Part shown: positions 1,250 through 56,916 of the stretch, one piece after another
Position numbering within the stretch: the stretch's first letter is position 1
Layout of the letters: each line of letters opens with the position of its first letter
Assembly: GCA_045538175.1 (NCBI GenBank)
Contig: JAZSQZ010000101.1
Span: 119-64,118 of the forward strand
DNA length: 64,000 bases
Direction of reading: 5' to 3'
DNA from: Clostridia bacterium
GTDB lineage: Bacteria; Bacillota; Clostridia; Christensenellales; UBA1242
Made by a program: the position numbers and the translations under genes
Notes under the pieces: model-generated
The model's database searches: none
The model's input: only the letters and a program-made list of their open reading frames with translations
Told to the model about the DNA's origin: nothing

Positions 1250-3262
1250 ATGCATATTAGTAATATTAGAATCAATAATTTTCGAAACTTTAATGAATTA
1301 GATGTAAAATTTCATGAGGGACTTAATGTTATTGTTGGACCAAATAATGTTGGAAAATCTAATTTAATTACTGCAATAAATTTTTTATCACAAGACCCAA
1401 ATGTGTCTGCAACGGTTGATGATTTTAATAAATATTTATTATTAAATCATGTTGAAGACATAAAGTCGGTTCCTCCAATTATTGAAATAGAATATACCTT
1501 TGAGCATGATTTAAGTCTTCAAGAGGAAGATTCAGCATTTTCTAAATTATCAAATATTTTAGTTTTTGACCCAATAACAGGAAATATTGAGAGTAATGAA
1601 GATAAGTCAATTGCTCACTTAGTTGCAAAAGTAATATTGAGATATGTATATGATTACAAAGAAATTGATACTTATTTAAATGAAATGGCTAATGTTGATG
1701 ATTTTAAGGGTGTTTACGAGGTTTTATGTAAATTACAAAGAAATTTTAAATGGAATTTTTATAACACAACAAATGATGAAGTTATAGAAAAGAAAATTAT
1801 TAATAATATATTTGAAATTGATGAAATCTCTGCAACGAGAACTATTGAAAGAATCACAGAACATTCAAAAAAATATGTAAATGACAAAATTAAAGATAAG
1901 GCTATAGATACTTTCGCTATAAAACAAAACATAACTAACGTAATACAAGAAAAATTAGTTGATGTAAAGGATGAGATAAATAAAGATATTGATGAAGACC
2001 AAAAACAAATAGGTATATCCAATGGAAAAAATAAATTTGTATCAACTTTCGTATTTGATGGGGAATTATCAGACAGTTTTAAATATGAATTGGAAGACGA
2101 TACTTTTGGATTTCCGCTGCCGCTAAATTATAATGGATTGGGTTATAATAACCTTATTTATATGAGAAACTTGTTAAAACAAAAAAGGAATAATGATTAT
2201 AATATAATTTTAATTGAAGAGCCTGAAGCTCACTTACATCCAAATATGCAATATAAGCTATTGGCATATATTGAGAATTTGCAGGAACAAGAAAATAACG
2301 ATATAAAAATTAAAAATCAAATTTTCGTTACCACTCACTCTCCTAATATTACAGCAACTTTATCAACAAACAATATAATATTATTGTCTATTAATAGAAA
2401 CAATTCTATTCCTACAAATAAAGCAGTTGTACTTTCTAATAACTTTAACTATAACATTGTCAAATCTTTATTCGACAATCCAGCAGATGATGAGGTAGAA
2501 AGGTCTGGGTTGTTAATACAAGCCCAAGAACATTTGTCCAAATTTTTAGATGTAACACGAAGTGATATTTTATTTTCAGAAAAGATAATTTTAGTTGAAG
2601 GTATAGCAGAAAAACTATTAATTCCTAAATATTTTAAAGATTTAGTTAAAGAGCATGTTTCTATTATAGAATTGGGAGGAATTAATTTTAATTATTTTTT
2701 ACCGCTTGCTTTTAATACTTACAAAAAAATATTGTGCATTACGGATAAAGACATTGAAATTATAGAGGAAGATGATAATGGTTTAACTTTAAACATTGAA
2801 GATTATCATAAAGAAACAAATAAAATAAACAAAATGTTTTCTTTATTAGCAAATCAGATTAAAGTTTGTCAACAGAGTAAATTTGGTTCTACATTTGAGA
2901 AAGAGATTTTTATTGAGAACTACGAAAATGGATTTGAAATATTAATGACAATGGTATTGTCTAGCAATTTCTGTGAGTTAATAAAACATAAAAGTTTCAA
3001 TTATTGGAATGAAAATTATTTGAAATATATTACTAATGGAAATCAAAGAAAATTTATAGGAGATTTGATTACAAAATATAAAGTATTGTACGATAGTAAT
3101 GATACGAACAAAGAACTAATAGAAAGAATGTTTTTTACTAATTTATTTTATCACTATGTAAGAAATAAAAAAGGTGATTTTGCATTAGAATTATTTGAAC
3201 ATATAGACAATATAAAAATTCCTTCATATATTGAGGAGGGTGTTAAATGGCTGAATTCATAG
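1250..3262 (+). CDS. gajA: OLD-family ATP-dependent nuclease (ABC ATPase + TOPRIM), Gabija GajA-like
   Basis: Walker A GPNNVGKS, GLGYNNLIY, Walker B IEEPEAHLHP, TTHSP, TOPRIM LVEGIAE and DKD, KGDFA; SD GAGGAG favours the ATG at 1250; overlaps a UvrD gene. Confidence 0.8.
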   Translation: MHISNIRINNFRNFNELDVKFHEGLNVIVGPNNVGKSNLITAINFLSQDPNVSATVDDFNKYLLLNHVEDIKSVPPIIEIEYTFEHDLSLQEEDSAFSKLSNILVFDPITGNIESNEDKSIAHLVAKVILRYVYDYKEIDTYLNEMANVDDFKGVYEVLCKLQRNFKWNFYNTTNDEVIEKKIINNIFEIDEISATRTIERITEHSKKYVNDKIKDKAIDTFAIKQNITNVIQEKLVDVKDEINKDIDEDQKQIGISNGKNKFVSTFVFDGELSDSFKYELEDDTFGFPLPLNYNGLGYNNLIYMRNLLKQKRNNDYNIILIEEPEAHLHPNMQYKLLAYIENLQEQENNDIKIKNQIFVTTHSPNITATLSTNNIILLSINRNNSIPTNKAVVLSNNFNYNIVKSLFDNPADDEVERSGLLIQAQEHLSKFLDVTRSDILFSEKIILVEGIAEKLLIPKYFKDLVKEHVSIIELGGINFNYFLPLAFNTYKKILCITDKDIEIIEEDDNGLTLNIEDYHKETNKINKMFSLLANQIKVCQQSKFGSTFEKEIFIENYENGFEILMTMVLSSNFCELIKHKSFNYWNENYLKYITNGNQRKFIGDLITKYKVLYDSNDTNKELIERMFFTNLFYHYVRNKKGDFALELFEHIDNIKIPSYIEEGVKWLNS

Positions 3263-27071: not shown

Positions 27072-27267
27072 TTGCTACCCCTTTTTTAGGTTTAGAGATT
27101 CTCAAAACCCTATCGATAGTTTCCATATTGCCATTGTCGACTTCTTCTTTAAGTTTGATAAGTTGTTTTAACTCTTTGTCTTCTGTGGTTAAACCAAGAA
27201 GTGCTGCTTTACCAACTTTGCTTGCAATAAGTTCTTTTGCAATTTCAAGTTTTGTATTGTCGTTCAT
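27064..27267 (-). CDS. Small helical protein, putative antitoxin or chaperone of the zeta gene
   Basis: 67 aa from MNDNTK with SD AAGGGGG; 8-nt overlap with the zeta start. Confidence 0.6.
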   Translation of the reverse strand: MNDNTKLEIAKELIASKVGKAALLGLTTEDKELKQLIKLKEEVDNGNMETIDRVLRISKPKKGVAND

Positions 27268-27294
27268 TTCTTTTCCCCCTTTTAAAAACACTAT

Positions 27295-27412
27295 ATAAAA
27301 AAAGGAAAACAAAAACTTGTTTACAAGTCTTGTTTCCCTTCATATTTAGACAATATAGTTGTTTTTATTTCCATAACACTTACATTATAATACAAGTTTA
27401 TATTATTGTCAA
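27295..27412 (-). promoter_or_regulatory. Consensus promoter + 17-codon leader ORF + intrinsic terminator upstream of the zeta operon
   Basis: TTGACA-17-TATAAT; leader ORF 27374..27321; hairpin AAGGGAAACAAGACTTG / CAAGTTTTTGTTTTCCTT followed by a T run. Confidence 0.6.
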
Positions 27413-49287: not shown

Positions 49288-51450
49288 TTATTTTCCAACT
49301 TTTTTGATTGATAGACCAATTCTCTTTTTGTCAAGGTCAACTGAAATAACTTTAACTGTAAGGATTTGACCGACACTCAATTCTTCACTTGGGTGTTTGA
49401 TATATCTATCACAAATTTCAGAAATATGTACAAGTCCGTCTTGGTGGACACCGATGTCAACAAAAGCACCAAAGTCGATAACGTTTCTTACAGTGCCTGT
49501 AAGTTCCATACCGATTGTTAAGTCTTCCATACTCATAACATCTGTTCTAAGTTGTGGGGCAGGAAGTTCGTCACGGATATCTCTACCAGGTTTAAGCAAC
49601 TCTTTTACAATATCGTTAAGTGTTGGTACGCCAACGCCACAAGCTTCAGCAACAGAAATTTCGCCCTTTTCGCCGATAAGACGTGGAAGTTCTTTTAGTT
49701 TTTCTTCTTTAATGTCTTCTTCTTTTAAGTTGAAAAGTTTTAAAAGTTTTTTAACTGCGTCATAACTTTCTGGGTGAACGCCTGTGTTATCTAAGATATT
49801 ATCTTCATTTGGAATTCTTAAGAAACCTGCACATTGTACATATGCTTTTTCTCCAAGTTTTGGAACTTTTAGAAGTTGAACCCTATCAGTAAATTTGCCG
49901 TTCTTTTCTCTGTATTCAACAATCTTTTTTGCTACACCTGCGTTAAGACCTGAAACGTGTTCTAAAAGTTTGTATGAAGCAGTGTTAAGGTCAACACCGA
50001 CAGAGTTAACGCAATCTTCAACAACGCCGTCTAAAACTTCGCCAAGGCGTTTTTGTGGCATATCGTGTTGATATTGTCCAACACCGATAGATTTTACGTC
50101 AATTTTGATAAGTTCTGCAAGTGGGTCTTGAAGACGTCTAGCGATTGAAACAGCACTTCTTTGTGTAACGTCAAAATCAGGGAATTCTTCAGCGCCTAGT
50201 TTTGATGCGCTATAAACTGAAGCACCTGCTTCGCTTACAACCATATAAGAAACTTTTTCTGGAACTTTCTTGATTAAGTTGCTAACAAAAATTTCACTTT
50301 CTTTACTTGCTGTACCATTTCCAATAGAAATAGCATCAACATTGTATTTTTTGATAAGTTCAGCGATTTTTTGTTCTGATTTTTCAATGTCGTTGTGTGG
50401 TGGAGTAGGATAAATAACAGTTGTATCGATAACTTTACCGTTTTTGTCGATAACTGCAATTTTACAACCTGTCCTATATGCTGGGTCAAGACCTAAAATT
50501 GTCTTTTCCTTAAGTGGTGGTTGCATAAGTAAAGGTTTTAAGTTTACTTCGAACATTTTGATTGCTTGTTCGTTTGCAATATCTGTTAGGGCGTTTCTAA
50601 GTTCACGCTCTAAAGATGGTTGCAAAAGTCTATCAAAACTGTCTGCAATAACATTTTGTAAATATTCAAGGTTTGGACAATCTTTTTTGATAAAGTGTTC
50701 TGCAATTCTCTCAAGACAACTATCCCTATTTGTTTCAACAACAACTTTTAGGCAGTCTTCTTTTTCGCCACGGTTGATTGCAAGAATTCTGTGGCTTGGA
50801 ATTTTTTGTGCAGGTTCTTTGTAGTTTTCATACATAGAATAAGTTGGTGCAAGTTCAGGATTTGCGTCCTTTTTGATAGATGTAACAATAATGCCTGTGT
50901 TTTGGAAAAATTCTCTTAAAATCTTTCTCATATCTGCGTCATCAGAAATCATTTCGGCAATAATGTCGCCTGCGCCAGCAAGGGCAGTTTCAACATCAGG
51001 AACTTTCTTTTCTTCGTTAACAAAAGGAAGTGCAAGTTCTTCAAGTGGTGTTTTGTCTTTTTGTTCAAAGATAACTTCTGCAAGTGGTTTTAATCCTTTT
51101 GCTTCAGCAATTGTTGCTTTTGTTTGTCTTTTTGGTCTAAATGGACGATATATATCTTCAAGTTCGGTCATTGTGTTAGCTTTTTCTAAGCTTTCCATAA
51201 TTTCCGGTGTCATCTTTTCTTGTTCGGTTATAAGTTTGATGATGTCATTTTTTCTTTCTTCAAAGTTTCTAAGATAGGTTAGTCTGTCAGAAAAATCTCT
51301 TAAAACTTGGTCGTCGCAACTACCGGTCATTTCTTTACGGTATCTTGCAATAAATGGAATTGTACAACCTTCATCTAAAAGGCCGATGATGTTTCCTGCG
51401 TGGGTTTCAGTGATGTTAAATTCAGCACTTAAAATTTTAATAAAATCCAT
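49288..51450 (-). CDS. tex: Tex family RNA-binding transcription accessory protein
   Basis: TIPFIARYRKE, GLDPAYRTGCK, IGNGTAS, SIGVGQYQHD, C-terminal S1 domain. Confidence 0.96.
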   Translation of the reverse strand: MDFIKILSAEFNITETHAGNIIGLLDEGCTIPFIARYRKEMTGSCDDQVLRDFSDRLTYLRNFEERKNDIIKLITEQEKMTPEIMESLEKANTMTELEDIYRPFRPKRQTKATIAEAKGLKPLAEVIFEQKDKTPLEELALPFVNEEKKVPDVETALAGAGDIIAEMISDDADMRKILREFFQNTGIIVTSIKKDANPELAPTYSMYENYKEPAQKIPSHRILAINRGEKEDCLKVVVETNRDSCLERIAEHFIKKDCPNLEYLQNVIADSFDRLLQPSLERELRNALTDIANEQAIKMFEVNLKPLLMQPPLKEKTILGLDPAYRTGCKIAVIDKNGKVIDTTVIYPTPPHNDIEKSEQKIAELIKKYNVDAISIGNGTASKESEIFVSNLIKKVPEKVSYMVVSEAGASVYSASKLGAEEFPDFDVTQRSAVSIARRLQDPLAELIKIDVKSIGVGQYQHDMPQKRLGEVLDGVVEDCVNSVGVDLNTASYKLLEHVSGLNAGVAKKIVEYREKNGKFTDRVQLLKVPKLGEKAYVQCAGFLRIPNEDNILDNTGVHPESYDAVKKLLKLFNLKEEDIKEEKLKELPRLIGEKGEISVAEACGVGVPTLNDIVKELLKPGRDIRDELPAPQLRTDVMSMEDLTIGMELTGTVRNVIDFGAFVDIGVHQDGLVHISEICDRYIKHPSEELSVGQILTVKVISVDLDKKRIGLSIKKVGK

Positions 51451-51534
51451 AATGTCTCCTTTAAATTGCTTTTTTTATACTAACACCAAAATTTGACTTT
51501 GGCAAACAAATTGACCTAAAAAGTGGGTTTTAAA

Positions 51535-51681
51535 AACAAAAAACCACTAGCATAAAACTAGTGGTTTGATGGAAACTATCCGGGTTTTTGAAACCCATAA
51601 TATTATTTATTATACACTCTAGGATTTTCCATCTGGTTGCCACATATTGCGCAACTCTCTTGTTCAAGAACTACGAGTGCT
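51535..51681 (-). ncRNA. Candidate structured small RNA A
   Basis: TTGACA(51715-51710)-17-TATAAT(51692-51687); several hairpins; terminator AAACCACTAG / CTAGTGGTTT + T run; no ORF longer than ~10 codons noticed. Confidence 0.55.
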
Positions 51682-51729
51682 TTTAAATTATATTTGTAGG
51701 AGAAACAAATGTCAAGACTTTTAAAAGAC

Positions 51730-51804
51730 AAAAAATAAAAACAATGCCCCACGGGCTAAGATGTTTTATCTGCCCATTCATTGATACTAAGTATCGCATT
51801 GTTT
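51730..51804 (-). ncRNA. Candidate structured small RNA B
   Basis: TTGACA(51838-51833)-17-TATACT(51815-51810); three-way junction closed by AACAATGC / GCATTGTT, then a T run. Confidence 0.5.
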
Positions 51805-51897
51805 TTAGTAGTATAGTGATTATATATGTTTTTGTCAATATCTATTTTAAGTCACTTTATGATAAAGAGAGCGAAATTGAGTTGTGATAATTTTTTG

Positions 51898-52554
51898 TTA
51901 TTTTCTTAAACAGTCAAGTTTTTTGTCTTTAAAATCTTTAACGGTAAATGTGCAAAGTTTGTTTAAGTCTTTTTTGTGATTTTTATTGAATTTGTTGTTT
52001 ACACCGATACATTCGATACCATACTCGACTGCTGTTTTGATGGCTGAATAGGAATCTTCAAAAAACAAAACTGACTCTTTATCTGTTTTTAAAAGTTTAA
52101 GACAGGTTTCATAAAATTCTGGAGTGTTTTTAGATATTTTTAAACCATTTTCTGTATAAATTTCTTCAAAGAAATCTATATCAAAATGTTTTAATGCTAT
52201 TTTTAACAAGTCTGAATCTGTTGCTGATGCAATAACTAATCTTTTTCCTTGTTCCTTTAAATTGACAAGAAATTCTCTTGCTTGTTTTATTATTTTAATT
52301 TTATGGGTGTAAAAGTAAGCCATTTGACTTTTCCAATGTTCTAAAAGGTTGTAACAATCATCTTCAACTTGAAAAATTTTGATTACTTTTCTTGCTTTTT
52401 CAAGGTTGTTTCCACCGTGAATTAAGCCATTTAATCGGTTGTCTGGTTTGATACCATAATGCTTGTAAGATAATTTTTCTATTGTTTTTTTCCAAAAACC
52501 TAAAGAATCCACTAATGTACTATCAAAATCAAATATCATTACATCTTTTTCCAT
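51898..52554 (-). CDS. HAD family phosphatase
   Basis: FDFDSTLVDS, K, FEDS. Confidence 0.88.
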   Translation of the reverse strand: MEKDVMIFDFDSTLVDSLGFWKKTIEKLSYKHYGIKPDNRLNGLIHGGNNLEKARKVIKIFQVEDDCYNLLEHWKSQMAYFYTHKIKIIKQAREFLVNLKEQGKRLVIASATDSDLLKIALKHFDIDFFEEIYTENGLKISKNTPEFYETCLKLLKTDKESVLFFEDSYSAIKTAVEYGIECIGVNNKFNKNHKKDLNKLCTFTVKDFKDKKLDCLRK

Positions 52555-52601: not shown

Positions 52602-53546
52602 TTATTTAAGTTCTTCTTCGATGATATATCTTGGTCTTTGTTTTGTTTCGATATATGTTTTTCCAACATAAATTCCAACAAGACCTAGGCAACCCAAAAT
52701 TATGCCAACCATTAAAGTTATAAATGAAAGTATAACCCAAAGGGAAGACAAGTGAATTGTAAACATCAAAACAAGTGTTGTTACAAAACTTACAAAACCT
52801 AACATACAAAAAACAATTCCAAGGGTCAAAATCAAAAACAAAGGTTTTATGCTAAAAGAGGTTATGCCGTCAATTGCAAAGTTAAGCATTTTCTTTAATG
52901 GGTATTTGCTTTCCCCTGCAAATCTTTCACCCCTTTCATATTCGACTGTTGTTGACTTAAACCCAACTTGTGGGACAATTCCACGAAGGAATAAATTCTT
53001 TTCAGTAAATTGCAAAACACCATCGAGTGCAGTTTTACTTAAAAGTCTATAATCAGCGTGATTAAAAACTGTATCAACGCCCATTTTTTTCATAATTTTG
53101 TAGAAGGCTTCTGCTGTGCCTTTTTTAAACTTTGTGTCTTTTTTTCTAGAACTTCTAACACCATATACAACATCATATCCGTTAAGATACTCTTTTACCA
53201 TTTCGTCAATTGCGTTGATGTCATCTTGAAGGTCAGCGTCCATAGAAATTGTCATATCTGCGTACTTATTTGCAGTTTCAAGCCCTGCAACAAGTGCTGC
53301 TTGGTGACCACGGTTGCGGCTTAAAGTAATTCCACAAAACATACTGTTTTGTTTGTTTAGGTCTTTTATAATTTCCCAAGTTTTGTCCTTTGAGCCATCG
53401 TTTACAAAAAGTACACGACTTTTTTCACTTATAAGTTTTTGCTCCATAAGTGCTGTTAATTTTTCGTTTAATCTTTTTGAAGTTTCGCCCAAAACTTCTT
53501 CTTCGTTGTAGCAAGGTACAACAACATATAAAGTATTATTCTTCAA
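52602..53546 (-). CDS. GT2 bactoprenol glycosyltransferase (GtrB-like)
   Basis: VPCYNEE, NDGSKD, RNRGHQ, DADLQD, two C-terminal TMs. Confidence 0.92.
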   Translation of the reverse strand: MKNNTLYVVVPCYNEEEVLGETSKRLNEKLTALMEQKLISEKSRVLFVNDGSKDKTWEIIKDLNKQNSMFCGITLSRNRGHQAALVAGLETANKYADMTISMDADLQDDINAIDEMVKEYLNGYDVVYGVRSSRKKDTKFKKGTAEAFYKIMKKMGVDTVFNHADYRLLSKTALDGVLQFTEKNLFLRGIVPQVGFKSTTVEYERGERFAGESKYPLKKMLNFAIDGITSFSIKPLFLILTLGIVFCMLGFVSFVTTLVLMFTIHLSSLWVILSFITLMVGIILGCLGLVGIYVGKTYIETKQRPRYIIEEELK

Positions 53547-54081
53547 CGGTTAACTCCTTTTTTTCTTTGTCTTTAAAAACAAAAATCTTTCTTGTGATGT
53601 AGTTATAAACGAGCACAATCAAAGTCATAACAATTTTAACAATCCACTCGTTGATTCCAAGCAAGTTGAATCCTAAAAACATACCTAGCATATGAAGACC
53701 AAGGTCAATTGCAGAAAGAAAAGTAAACAACAAAAAGCCTTTTGTGCTTTTAGAATTGCCCTTGTTTCCAAAAACAAATATGATTGAAAAGATGTAGTTA
53801 AACACAAGTCCAATCAAAAAGCCAACTGCTGTGCCAACAATGGTCGAAATGGTGCTAGGGCTTATTGTTGCCCCATAAAAAACATTAAAAAATGAAGGGT
53901 AGTTTGCAGGTTGAAAGATATACAAAGTTACCCCCATAAAAAACATATCAATAACAGTTGCCAAACCACCGATGATTACAAATCTTATTATTTCGTAAAA
54001 AGTTGGGTGAGCATTTAAAAAATTAAAAAGTTTTTTAATAAGTCCCACTTTTTCTTGTTTTTCTTCTATTTTATTTTCCAT
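53536..54081 (-). CDS. GtrA family flippase
   Basis: RFVIIGGLATVID, FNYIFS...VF, YNYITRKIFVF. Confidence 0.88.
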   Translation of the reverse strand: MENKIEEKQEKVGLIKKLFNFLNAHPTFYEIIRFVIIGGLATVIDMFFMGVTLYIFQPANYPSFFNVFYGATISPSTISTIVGTAVGFLIGLVFNYIFSIIFVFGNKGNSKSTKGFLLFTFLSAIDLGLHMLGMFLGFNLLGINEWIVKIVMTLIVLVYNYITRKIFVFKDKEKKELTVEE

Positions 54082-54186
54082 AATTTAATTAAACACTAAA
54101 AGCAAAAAAAAGTAAAGCAAAGATAACTATTTGTTTGTTTTATATGGGTAATTATTGTATAATTTTATTTGTATAAGGATAATGAA

Positions 54187-56916
54187 ATGACAAAGGTAAA
54201 AAGTTTTATAAAACAAAAATATGTTTATTTTATTATAGCAGGTTTGTTTGTTTTGTTTTCTGTTGTGGCAGATGCCATAATGGGTATTTTTCCTTTTGGA
54301 CCAAACACGGTTGCAACTTATGATGCATGGCATCAAGTGTGCCCGTTATATAATTTGATATTTGACTTTTTTGAAGGCAAATCAACATTGTTTTATTCAA
54401 CAAATGTTGGTGGCGGAATAAACACTTTTGGTGTTTTAACATATTACATTGTAAGTCCGTTTAGCGTTTTCTTTTTAATGTTTGGTAGGGGTGGACTTTA
54501 CTTTGCATATGGCTTTGTGCTTTTGTTAAAAACAATCACAACAGCAATCGTTGCTTGTTTCTTTATAAGAAAAGTTTTTAAAAATGTAAACAAGGTTTAT
54601 CAAATTGTCTTGTCAGTTTTATATGCAACAGGTGGTTACTTTGTTTTTTTGCACACTTGGATAACCTGGATTGACTTTATGATTTATATGCCACTTTTGT
54701 TTTTGGCATACAAAAACTTAATTGAAAACGAAAAGATTTTACCATTTGCAATTGTTATGGCTTTGCTTATTTTCACTTGCTTTGGTATCGGTAGTTTTTC
54801 ATTTATAATTTTGTTTGTTTTGTTTGTTGCGTATAGCCTTATCTGTCTTGACAAGGAAAAACAAAAAAGGGTTCTAACAAACACGGTTTTAGGTCTTATT
54901 GTTGCAATAGGTATTGCTTTGTTTTTGCTTGTACCTAGTTTTCTTCAATACCTAGGTTCTTCAAGAACAGGTGGATTTTTTGAAACACTTTTTACAAAAC
55001 CTGTTTTTAATGAGCACACATCCGATAAACTTGCAACTGTTGTTGGCGACGGACTTATGTTGCTTTTTGCAATTATATATGTTGTAAAGTGTGATAAAAA
55101 AGACAACAAAAATAAATTCTTAATCTTTGCCCTTGTGCTTCTTTTAATACCTGTAATCGTTGACGAAGCAAATGTGCTTTTAAATATGGGCTCATACAAC
55201 GGTTATCCTTTTAGATTAGGTTTTGTATATTCGTTTTTGATTTTTTATATGGCTTCAAAACTTATAAACGACAAGTGGCAAGTTTTTGATGAAAGCACAA
55301 ATTCAAACAAAAAACACTTAATCGATTTTATAATTATTTCTGCAATATATTTGGTGGTTCTTGTTTTGGTTTTCTTGGTACTTGGCCCAATACTATCGCA
55401 ATTCTTAGCAAATCAAACAGCATCTTGGGGAGTTCTTGGTTGTTACTTGCTTGTGCTTGCCCTTCTTATAATCCCAGCAGGCCTAGTTTTGATAAATGCT
55501 AAAACTAAGGGTTTAAGTAAGAAAGTCTTAACAATTGCTATGTGTGTGATAACAGGTTTGCAAGTGTTTGTAAACTATGGTTTTGGTGTGTATGGCAGTG
55601 TTTTAAGTTACAAAACAATTTCGTCAGTTTCGCAAATGTTAAAAGAAAACAACATCACAACACAAAATACCCTAAAAGATTCTGCAGAAATCTTAAGCAG
55701 AAACGCACACCTTGATGTAGGCACAAAATCATATTCGATTTTCTCATCTTCAACTGACAATTATTTGTTAGACCTAAAATCACCTTTTAGTTATGTCAAC
55801 AACAACACAGGTGTTTCTTCATATGGTGGCACAATCATAAGCGATGCAATCTTTGGTTACGATTATGTCTTAAGCGACAAAATGGAAACAAGGCCTAACT
55901 TAGAGTTTGTCGACAGTTTCACCGAAAACGGACTTACTTGTTATCTTTACAAAAACACACTTGTCTTAAATGGTGGCCTTGTCGTAAATGATGACTTTTC
56001 GTACGAAGCAAACAAAGACTGTATTAAGTTTACAAACAATTTTTACAACTTGCTCGGTGGAGACGGGGAAGTCATAAAAGAGTATCCACTTTTTGAAGGC
56101 GATGTTGTTGATATTAAATACAACAACTTAAAACTTACCACCTTAGACGAAAAATATCAATTTGATATTATCGATGAAAACAAGGAAGGTTATATAACAC
56201 TTAGTTATACTGCCACAAAAGATAGCATTATCTATTTGTTTACAAACGAAAAAGATGTCGACAAAATCTATACTTTAACTCAAAAACAAGAAGTGGAAGG
56301 TTTTAGGACAGTTTCTTATTCGCTTGAAGCTTGCCTAAACGACCTAGGTTATGTAAAAGCAGGAGAAACAATTTCGCTTGACCTAAGATTTGTCGAAAGT
56401 GTAAGTTTTGATAAAACAGGCGAAAGTTCTTTGCGTTTTGCAACTCTTGATTATATAGGGGCTAAAAATGTTATAGAGGCAGTAAAAAACAACACTAGCC
56501 TAGAAGTATCTACAAAGAAAGATGGTTTTACTGTTTCAACAACACAAACTGATAATACTAAAAAACTTATCTTTCCACACCCTTATAGCGAAAATTATGT
56601 TTGCACAGTCAATGGCAAAAATGTCGAAATCAAAAACAACAACGGTTTTATCGAAATCGACTTAAACGAAGGCGAAAACAAAATCGAATTAACTTATAAA
56701 AACAAGTACACAAAACTTATGCTTGTATGCCTAGTTGTAGGCGTTGTCTTGGTTACTTGTGTCTTACTTGTTACAAAATTCTTCAAAGAAAAAATTATGA
56801 AAATTTCTTTCATCGTAAGATATTTGTCAATTGCACTTGCTGTTGTCCTTGTCGCATTTTTCTATGTTTTCCCATTCTTCACAATGCTTGTAAAAATGTG
56901 CCTAGGTGTTTTTTAA
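54187..56916 (+). CDS. YfhO family membrane glycosyltransferase (GT-C)
   Basis: DAWHQ, YYIVSPF, GYPFR, many TMs, PYSENY; divergent from gtrA/gtrB. Confidence 0.85.
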   Translation: MTKVKSFIKQKYVYFIIAGLFVLFSVVADAIMGIFPFGPNTVATYDAWHQVCPLYNLIFDFFEGKSTLFYSTNVGGGINTFGVLTYYIVSPFSVFFLMFGRGGLYFAYGFVLLLKTITTAIVACFFIRKVFKNVNKVYQIVLSVLYATGGYFVFLHTWITWIDFMIYMPLLFLAYKNLIENEKILPFAIVMALLIFTCFGIGSFSFIILFVLFVAYSLICLDKEKQKRVLTNTVLGLIVAIGIALFLLVPSFLQYLGSSRTGGFFETLFTKPVFNEHTSDKLATVVGDGLMLLFAIIYVVKCDKKDNKNKFLIFALVLLLIPVIVDEANVLLNMGSYNGYPFRLGFVYSFLIFYMASKLINDKWQVFDESTNSNKKHLIDFIIISAIYLVVLVLVFLVLGPILSQFLANQTASWGVLGCYLLVLALLIIPAGLVLINAKTKGLSKKVLTIAMCVITGLQVFVNYGFGVYGSVLSYKTISSVSQMLKENNITTQNTLKDSAEILSRNAHLDVGTKSYSIFSSSTDNYLLDLKSPFSYVNNNTGVSSYGGTIISDAIFGYDYVLSDKMETRPNLEFVDSFTENGLTCYLYKNTLVLNGGLVVNDDFSYEANKDCIKFTNNFYNLLGGDGEVIKEYPLFEGDVVDIKYNNLKLTTLDEKYQFDIIDENKEGYITLSYTATKDSIIYLFTNEKDVDKIYTLTQKQEVEGFRTVSYSLEACLNDLGYVKAGETISLDLRFVESVSFDKTGESSLRFATLDYIGAKNVIEAVKNNTSLEVSTKKDGFTVSTTQTDNTKKLIFPHPYSENYVCTVNGKNVEIKNNNGFIEIDLNEGENKIELTYKNKYTKLMLVCLVVGVVLVTCVLLVTKFFKEKIMKISFIVRYLSIALAVVLVAFFYVFPFFTMLVKMCLGVF

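Follow-up and report, generated by a model that had tools for sequence, protein, structure and literature searches.

Within the 64,000-nt stretch of DNA analysed here, referred to below as the window, a small gene read from the minus strand lies between a HAD hydrolase gene and tex, and its surroundings consist of housekeeping genes only. The genome is a 1.6-Mb assembly of 153 contigs and the sole member of its genus in the collection that we searched. The gene is headed by a TTGACA-17-TATAAT promoter (51715..51687, minus strand) that scores 12/12, and perfect sites of this kind occur twice in the 64-kb window against 0.05 expected from shuffles. We set the transcript start at 51681 from the -10 box and count nucleotide numbers from there (Table 1). 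A stretch of 147 nt folds with a minimum free energy of -42.2 kcal/mol (z = -4.43), which none of 200 shuffles equalled. Given the 12/12 promoter, the terminator and this z-score, we take the locus to be a genuine, if predicted, gene for a small RNA of some 149 nt, equipped with a sigma-70 consensus promoter and an intrinsic terminator of its own.

Table 1. Positions of the predicted RNA gene, its structural parts and the adjoining signals in the window (nt, nucleotide of the RNA).
Feature	Position	Strand	Remark
-35 box TTGACA of the RNA promoter	51710..51715	-	overlaps the ATG and second codon of the relic partner gene (+ strand)
-10 box TATAAT of the RNA promoter	51687..51692	-	
Predicted transcript, ~149 nt	51533..51681	-	start from the -10 box, end from the terminator T-run
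Pseudoknot 5' strand GCACUC, nt 2-7	51675..51680	-	
P1 hairpin UUCUU/AAGAG, nt 12-25	51657..51670	-	
P2 hairpin GUUGC/GCAAC, nt 27-46	51636..51655	-	conserved GCAA..GUG loop, then conserved CCA
P3 5' strand, nt 49-60	51622..51633	-	
Pseudoknot 3' strand GAGUGU, nt 63-68	51614..51619	-	two bases past the P3 5' strand
P4 hairpin AUAAUA/UAUUAU, nt 69-85	51597..51613	-	part of the optional insert
P5 hairpin GGGUUU/AAACCC, nt 86-100	51582..51596	-	
P3 3' strand, nt 101-114	51568..51581	-	conserved GGAUAGU, 2-nt AG bulge
Intrinsic terminator	51533..51567	-	11-pair stem-loop 51567..51541, then T-run
tex promoter TTGCCA-17-TG-TAGTAT	51477..51505	-	downstream of the RNA terminator, separate from the RNA gene
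Relic partner gene	51709..51738	+	ATG and 8 codons (MSRLLKDKK), then stop
Relic ribosome-binding site GGAG	51699..51702	+	inside the RNA promoter spacer

Four other features of the window deserve mention. The sole other perfect TTGACA-17-TATAAT site, in 27266..27412 (minus strand), is followed by a 17-codon ORF and a terminator-like hairpin just upstream of the gene starting at 27266, and this region resembles a leader-peptide attenuator. Genes for a GtrA-like protein, a family-2 glycosyltransferase and YfhO (52602..56916), immediately upstream of the HAD gene, form a surface-glycosylation cluster. ARAGORN calls a tRNA-Thr at 50773..50866 (plus strand) inside the tex coding region and on the opposite strand, a call that is probably false since the Rfam tRNA model does not report it. 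Finally, a near-consensus promoter TTGACA-17-TATACT (11/12, at 51838..51810, within 51725..51838 of the minus strand) precedes an 81-nt Y-shaped fold that ends in a T-run (z = -3.3, with 1 of 200 shuffles as good); it sits in the remains of the partner-gene region described below, has no match to the RNA model R2, and could be another small transcript or a chance arrangement.

The core of the RNA is a predicted H-type pseudoknot, in which the 5' end pairs with bases that come shortly after the 5' strand of P3, GCACUC (nt 2-7) being complementary to GAGUGU (nt 63-68) with one G-U pair included; P1 and P2 would occupy its first loop. P3 is formed by GAUGGAAAAUCC and GGAU-AG-UUUCCAUC (nt 49-60 with 101-114). 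Across the homologues described below, the conserved unpaired bases are an AG before P2, GCAA..GUG in the P2 loop, CCA after P2, and GGAUAGU in P3. Tandem Repeats Finder reported no array in 51400..51950. An earlier note, made from the letters of this DNA, had already described a perfect promoter, a terminator, the hairpins with a multibranch domain, a possible GCACTC/GAGTGT pseudoknot and a separate downstream promoter for tex; the promoter (12/12) and the terminator (11-pair stem at 51567..51541 with its T-run) are as it stated, every helix is present in the minus-strand sequence, the complementarity of the pseudoknot is present with double changes in six of its seven pairs, and the tex promoter recurs with the same layout in two relatives (L088 and L016).

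The proximity of the RNA to tex raises the question of whether it could be a cis-acting leader, riboswitch or attenuator, that controls this gene. The RNA and tex do share a strand, with the RNA some 80 nt upstream, and the RNA has a terminator at its end. However, the tex gene, which encodes a protein of 720 aa with all Tex domains, has a promoter of its own at 51505..51477 (9/12, with a TG extension) between that terminator and the start codon, and the layout TTGCCA-17-TG-TAnAAT also precedes tex in L088 and L016, both among the nearest relatives when Tex sequences are compared (identity of the nearest Tex proteins, 77-79%). The interval before tex is short in relatives and has a different gene upstream of it. 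Neither blastn nor nhmmer found a homologue of the RNA among 160 tex loci from genomes and metagenomes, so that the RNA stands upstream of tex in 0 of 160 loci searched, and its homologues occupy unrelated places, often facing the next gene. We therefore consider control of tex by this RNA highly improbable.

We then have to ask whether the RNA belongs to a known class. Rfam 15 gave no match overlapping 51533..51715 at E <= 10, and at gathering thresholds the whole window holds four tRNAs and nothing else; likewise, seven homologue loci searched at E <= 1 yielded only tRNAs above thresholds and nothing on the RNA. The predicted family is new to the catalogue, Rfam 15 holding no such family. 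A divergent housekeeping RNA such as a compact 6S RNA might nevertheless escape recognition: the standard 6S model finds nothing in the window's genome and the promoter is very strong, but the same model matches just 5 of 14 control genomes, and its silence here consequently means little. Against a 6S RNA stands the wrong shape: the 5' end is paired to an internal junction, and the long closing stem or rod with its central bubble is absent. The occurrence differs as well, for a 6S RNA would be a single copy in nearly all genomes, whereas this RNA is found in only 8 of 151 family genomes, in up to three copies, and in association with a mobile-element gene; the SRP RNA of the genome lies at another locus. 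A housekeeping RNA is hence barely credible.

BLAST of the 181-nt stretch against 60 relatives returned just pieces of 19-48 nt at chance level. A covariance model (R1) was built from this single sequence and its predicted helices with the terminator left out, and gave 10 matches (E 8e-10 to 1e-4) in 7 of 150 other genomes of the same family; three weak matches lying inside ORFs were dropped. The refined model R2 detects 14 copies in 8 of 151 family genomes including the window's own (E <= 9e-5), with up to three copies per genome. The copy of the window has the top R2 score, 85.7 bits over the core 51568..51681, and displays the pseudoknot, P1-P3, and the conserved AG, GCAA..GUG, CCA and GGAUAGU. 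A motif scan of the genome collection yielded 18 loci, eight of them previously found and ten new, all ten of which R2 confirmed. R2 had no match in 150 genomes of the order (145 from other families), and it rejected all 24 motif matches in viral contigs; the viral, phage and plasmid collections searched yielded no copy. The window's genome holds no second copy, its next R2 match having E = 4.8; a 33-nt match on contig C101 was discarded as a second copy as it covers a look-alike terminator only. This near-copy of the terminator hairpin (locus L002, 1496..1640, ~90% over 33-38 nt) closes a different promoter-proximal stretch in an ORF-poor region of about 1 kb that has no Rfam match.

A consensus-like promoter stands directly upstream of 10 of the 11 first strong copies (L178 lacks it) and of most other copies examined, and a hairpin with a T-run just downstream of all 21 copies examined (the 11 strong ones and the 10 new loci). 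The next downstream ORF is often on the opposite strand, facing the RNA. The homologues are thus, by prediction, stand-alone genes at unrelated genomic places. At four loci two copies lie 80-1100 nt apart (L174, 1501..2728; L177, 1501..1753; L190, 1288..1589; L267, 2448..2822), often of different subtypes and with the second partner gene broken, which looks like tandem or successive insertions followed by decay.

The covariation set comprises 30 copies of the RNA, 29 of them distinct, and an earlier set of 19 distinct copies gave the same picture. The proportion of paired cells over the 29 distinct copies is 90.6%, compared with 62.6% for shuffles and 38-46% after sliding of the partners, and 26 of 29 pairs show two-sided changes; since P1-P3 were part of the covariance model, their pairing counts lean towards it. 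The pseudoknot was absent from the model, and there double changes affect six of seven pairs and 78.9% of cells pair despite a few out-of-register rows. Both the pseudoknot and the predicted helices P1, P2 and P3 have the support of covariation. The hairpins P4 and P5 make up an insert that is optional. It is most evident in four copies, those of the window, L172, L174 (first copy) and L175, which keep both hairpins with differing sequences as judged by eye; long inserts at the same position are also found in L263 and L261. The strand test counts 31 G-U against 5 A-C pairs, and this excess of G-U assigns the fold to the strand that carries the promoter and the terminator.

Taken together, these searches bear out the proposal of the earlier note that the locus specifies a novel non-coding RNA: it is structured, has its own promoter, lacks an Rfam family and has covarying homologues. 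The note did not recognise it as SRP, 6S, T-box or a common riboswitch, the Rfam 15 search that it had recommended gave no match, and the collection of homologues that it had also recommended revealed covariation in P1, P2, P3 and the pseudoknot. Its suggestion of a riboswitch, on the other hand, is not supported, as the homologues stand alone, are often convergent with the downstream neighbour and are found upstream of tex at 0 of 160 loci; nothing points to a ribozyme, which it had also considered and which has little or no support. It had not mentioned the nine-codon partner relic or the filamentous-phage-like context of the family, to which we now turn after a word on variation within the species.

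Contigs from four gut metagenome runs share the HAD-RNA-tex arrangement, and single contigs of X3 and X8 cover the whole 551-bp stretch. In these contigs P3, the junction and the terminator are invariant, and P4 and the pseudoknot are kept. In P5, G87-C99 is replaced by A-U in X3, X8 and X12, a compensatory change on both sides, and P1 carries three single changes that are all compatible with pairing. X8 and X12 have uncompensated changes in the 5' arm of P2, and the -35 box of X8 is altered too. Contig depth is below 5, so that single differences may be errors. Variation within the species is no lower in the RNA region than in its flanks, a pattern that would fit decay as well as function.

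Divergent from the RNA, most copies have an ORF whose start lies 27-30 nt from the RNA start, and at this distance its ATG-TCA overlaps the -35 box of the RNA while its GGAG falls in the promoter spacer. The encoded protein, called here the partner, has 93-106 aa and is basic and hydrophilic (pI ~10, GRAVY -0.8 to -1.1, maximum 19-residue hydropathy <= 0.38). Among the 29 distinct copies, the partner gene is intact in 12, reduced to an N-terminal stub in eight and missing in nine. Conversely, all five full-length partner loci found via the protein carry the RNA; the protein occurs in 6 of 151 family genomes, and the RNA in five of these six. The subtypes of the RNA and of the partner are linked, which may reflect shared descent alone. 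In the window the divergent partner gene, with its ATG overlapping the -35 box, is a relic only.

Searches of Pfam, PHROGs, NCBIfam and PADLOC assign the partner protein to no family, and the at least 217 related protein clusters in public data are all unnamed. Its structure model (pLDDT 83.4) has no match in the PDB with Foldseek at E <= 0.001, a best Z of 3.4 in a wide VIA search, and nothing usable in the ESM Atlas. No partner protein was found in 400 genomes of the class, a sample that held no known positive, or in viral, phage and plasmid collections. The RNA forms no consistent duplex with the partner's translation-start region (z -2.2 to +0.1 over seven pairs, at differing sites). The sole promoter-like site for the partner scores 9/12 against the perfect consensus of the RNA, and this best site would give transcripts that do not overlap the RNA. 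Locus L174 differs in its layout: an intact short-form partner gene (1633..1914, minus strand) is convergent, not divergent, with the insert-type RNA copy, and opposite the start of this short form (1908..1960, plus strand) lie a promoter-like site and a short hairpin only, with no RNA of the family.

In relatives, the predicted RNA gene and the partner gene diverge from each other, the latter being the first gene of a small integrated element similar to filamentous phages (inoviruses) and often followed by a gene for a Zot-like assembly ATPase. The order in L218 is integrase, Rep with helicase, Zot-like ATPase, partner gene and RNA; in L219 it is tRNA-Met, integrase (which abuts the tRNA gene), G2P-type rolling-circle Rep, a 693-aa ORF, partner gene and RNA. 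At L209 and L259, a Zot-like ATPase gene and a small ORF run into the 3' end of the RNA, and on its other side come the partner gene (or a stub) and a rolling-circle Rep gene, while at L210, L256 and L262 the Zot-like ATPase gene directly follows the partner gene. These seven loci have the features of an integrated filamentous-phage-like element; they represent 7 of the 23 homologue loci examined, many of which have short flanks, and 6 of the 12 with an intact partner. Several degraded RNA copies adjoin tRNA genes, and we found no convincing attachment-site repeats around L218 and L219. The replication protein of L218 (4183..5382, minus strand) combines Viral_Rep (PF02407) and RNA_helicase, unlike the G2P type of L219, L209 and L259, and thereby indicates that the RNA-partner pair travels with at least two kinds of replication module. 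A match to phrog_15077 (function unknown) ends at the RNA 3' end in L208 (181..948), L250 (946..1770) and L266 (92..919).

The window's genome shows none of this context: no phage gene lies between the 40-kb and 64-kb positions of the window, and the genome has no match to the partner protein, Zot or G2P. In the absence of these filamentous-element hallmarks from the window and its genome we read the copy as an orphan; the RNA gene and nine partner codons are all that remain, as a remnant between the HAD gene and tex.

Such a genomic context could also mean that the fold acts in single-stranded DNA, as a single-strand origin or packaging signal of a rolling-circle or filamentous element. At L209 and L259 the element sits between the last and first genes of the phage-like operon, the intergenic region in which filamentous phages keep their origins and packaging hairpins, and rolling-circle Rep genes are nearby. 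Yet most copies possess a -35/-10 promoter of the double-strand type, the 21 examined copies have a downstream hairpin and T-run, and the orphan copy keeps an intact promoter without a replicon. Moreover, the 31 G-U against 5 A-C pairs favour a fold on the strand antisense to the phage genes, whereas the packaged or displaced strand of rolling-circle and filamentous elements would be expected to be the sense strand. As far as sequence can tell, a role in single-stranded DNA is weakened by strand bias, promoter and terminator, and we hold it to be very unlikely.

The explanation to which we incline, and which we consider probable, is that the window holds an orphaned copy of a prophage regulatory RNA from a filamentous-phage-like element, possibly an immunity RNA or one that neutralises the partner. 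The partner protein belongs to no Pfam, PHROGs, NCBIfam or PADLOC family, and the function of the RNA is one that we infer: it may regulate or neutralise the phage's first gene, by promoter competition and/or protein binding. In an intact element, transcription of the RNA would be constitutive and driven by a much stronger promoter, in physical overlap with the promoter region of the phage operon, and the RNA could hold this operon or its first product in check. One route would be promoter competition; the other would be the binding of the small basic protein through the conserved three-dimensional fold of the RNA. The RNA would then be the counterpart of the divergently transcribed repressor of temperate phages, and the orphan copy might be kept as a shield against related phages or be slowly decaying.

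The same divergent pair may be read as an RNA antitoxin and its toxin, in which a toxic small basic protein would be neutralised by the binding of the pseudoknotted RNA, as in type III systems, the two forming an addiction or defence module on the phage-like element. It is worth considering here that the RNA is patchily distributed (8 of 151 genomes within the family, 0 of 145 from the order's other families), that several copies are possible per genome, that the RNA has a perfect consensus promoter against 9/12 for the only promoter-like site of the protein, and that the protein is basic and hydrophilic with a pI of ~10 and a GRAVY of -0.8 to -1.1. In addition, 17 of 29 copies have lost the protein gene or have it in broken form, yet all the RNAs still match the model over their full length; a protein lost before its RNA is the order of loss expected if the protein were the harmful half. 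On the other side, no toxin family or fold is recognised for the partner, the arrangement is divergent with neither an operon nor tandem repeats, and the partner gene opens an operon that also encodes a Zot-like ATPase, a position in keeping with a phage function. This toxin-antitoxin reading, which we regard as unlikely, overlaps the proposal of a regulatory RNA, and the data presented here do not separate them.

If we return to the regulatory RNA of a prophage, it is tempting to extend it into a wider scheme, although we would call this extension speculative and rather doubtful: in the filamentous prophages of small-genome gut Clostridia, a pseudoknotted RNA might replace the repressor protein as the lysogeny or immunity factor, binding the first-gene product and shutting the operon via the overlapping promoter, with subtypes that correspond to immunity groups and with hosts that keep orphan RNAs as superinfection shields.

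Whatever the function, the present analysis adds to the RNA catalogue a missing class of structured RNA, backed by covariation, that has a true predicted pseudoknot, conserves many of its unpaired bases and is linked to a single uncharacterised protein family of at least 217 unnamed clusters. The analysis also places the RNA-partner pair at the control end of filamentous-phage-like elements found in uncultured gut Clostridia, on whose regulation our literature searches found nothing; these searches likewise gave no description of the RNA or of the partner protein. Should the RNA control or neutralise the first phage gene product, a phage switch of a new kind would be at hand, along with an RNA-protein pair suited to the study of recognition. 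For genome annotation, it accounts for the strong orphan promoter that adjoins tex.

Several known systems resemble this arrangement in part. The type III antitoxins ToxI, CptI and TenpI likewise join a pseudoknotted RNA to one small-protein gene and are phage-related, patchy and multicopy. The type III RNAs are tandem repeats of ~34-45 nt that precede the toxin gene on its own strand and are cleaved by an endoribonuclease of the ToxN type, whereas the present RNA consists of one 90-115-nt unit, divergent and free of repeats, with a promoter and a terminator to itself and with no toxin-family match to its partner. A pseudoknotted fold is thus shared with type III systems, but tandem repeats and a same-strand downstream toxin gene of the ToxN/AbiQ type are not. 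The type I pairs SymE-SymR and tisB-istR also combine a strong constitutive small RNA with the 5' end of a weakly promoted gene. They are divergent and have non-membrane toxins, and their RNAs act by base pairing and have simple folds. In the present case no consistent RNA-mRNA duplex was found and the best protein promoter site would give transcripts that do not overlap; a type I toxin would be expected to be small and hydrophobic, and the partner is hydrophilic, with a maximum 19-residue hydropathy of at most 0.38.

Closer to the proposed role, the P4 CI RNA and the C4 RNA of P1/P7 have in common with the present candidate that a small RNA, not a protein, serves as the prophage immunity factor. 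These are antisense-type RNAs processed from longer transcripts in double-stranded DNA phages. They are similar to the present RNA neither in sequence nor in structure, and the latter has no Rfam match. The Xanthomonas phage cf may have an RNA immunity factor as well, of which the passages of PMC3816273 offer no confirmation.

Among filamentous phages themselves, the nearest likeness is with the repressors Pf4r of Pf4 and RstR of CTXphi. RstR is the divergently transcribed immunity repressor of CTXphi. For Pf4, passages of PMC8402870 describe a pf4r-xisF4 intergenic region with -10 and -35 boxes. Pf4r and RstR are DNA-binding proteins, whereas the present gene specifies a pseudoknotted RNA and encodes no protein, and is a candidate regulator known from its sequence; what it would share with them is a gene that reads away from the phage operon and a common, overlapping control region at the end of the element.
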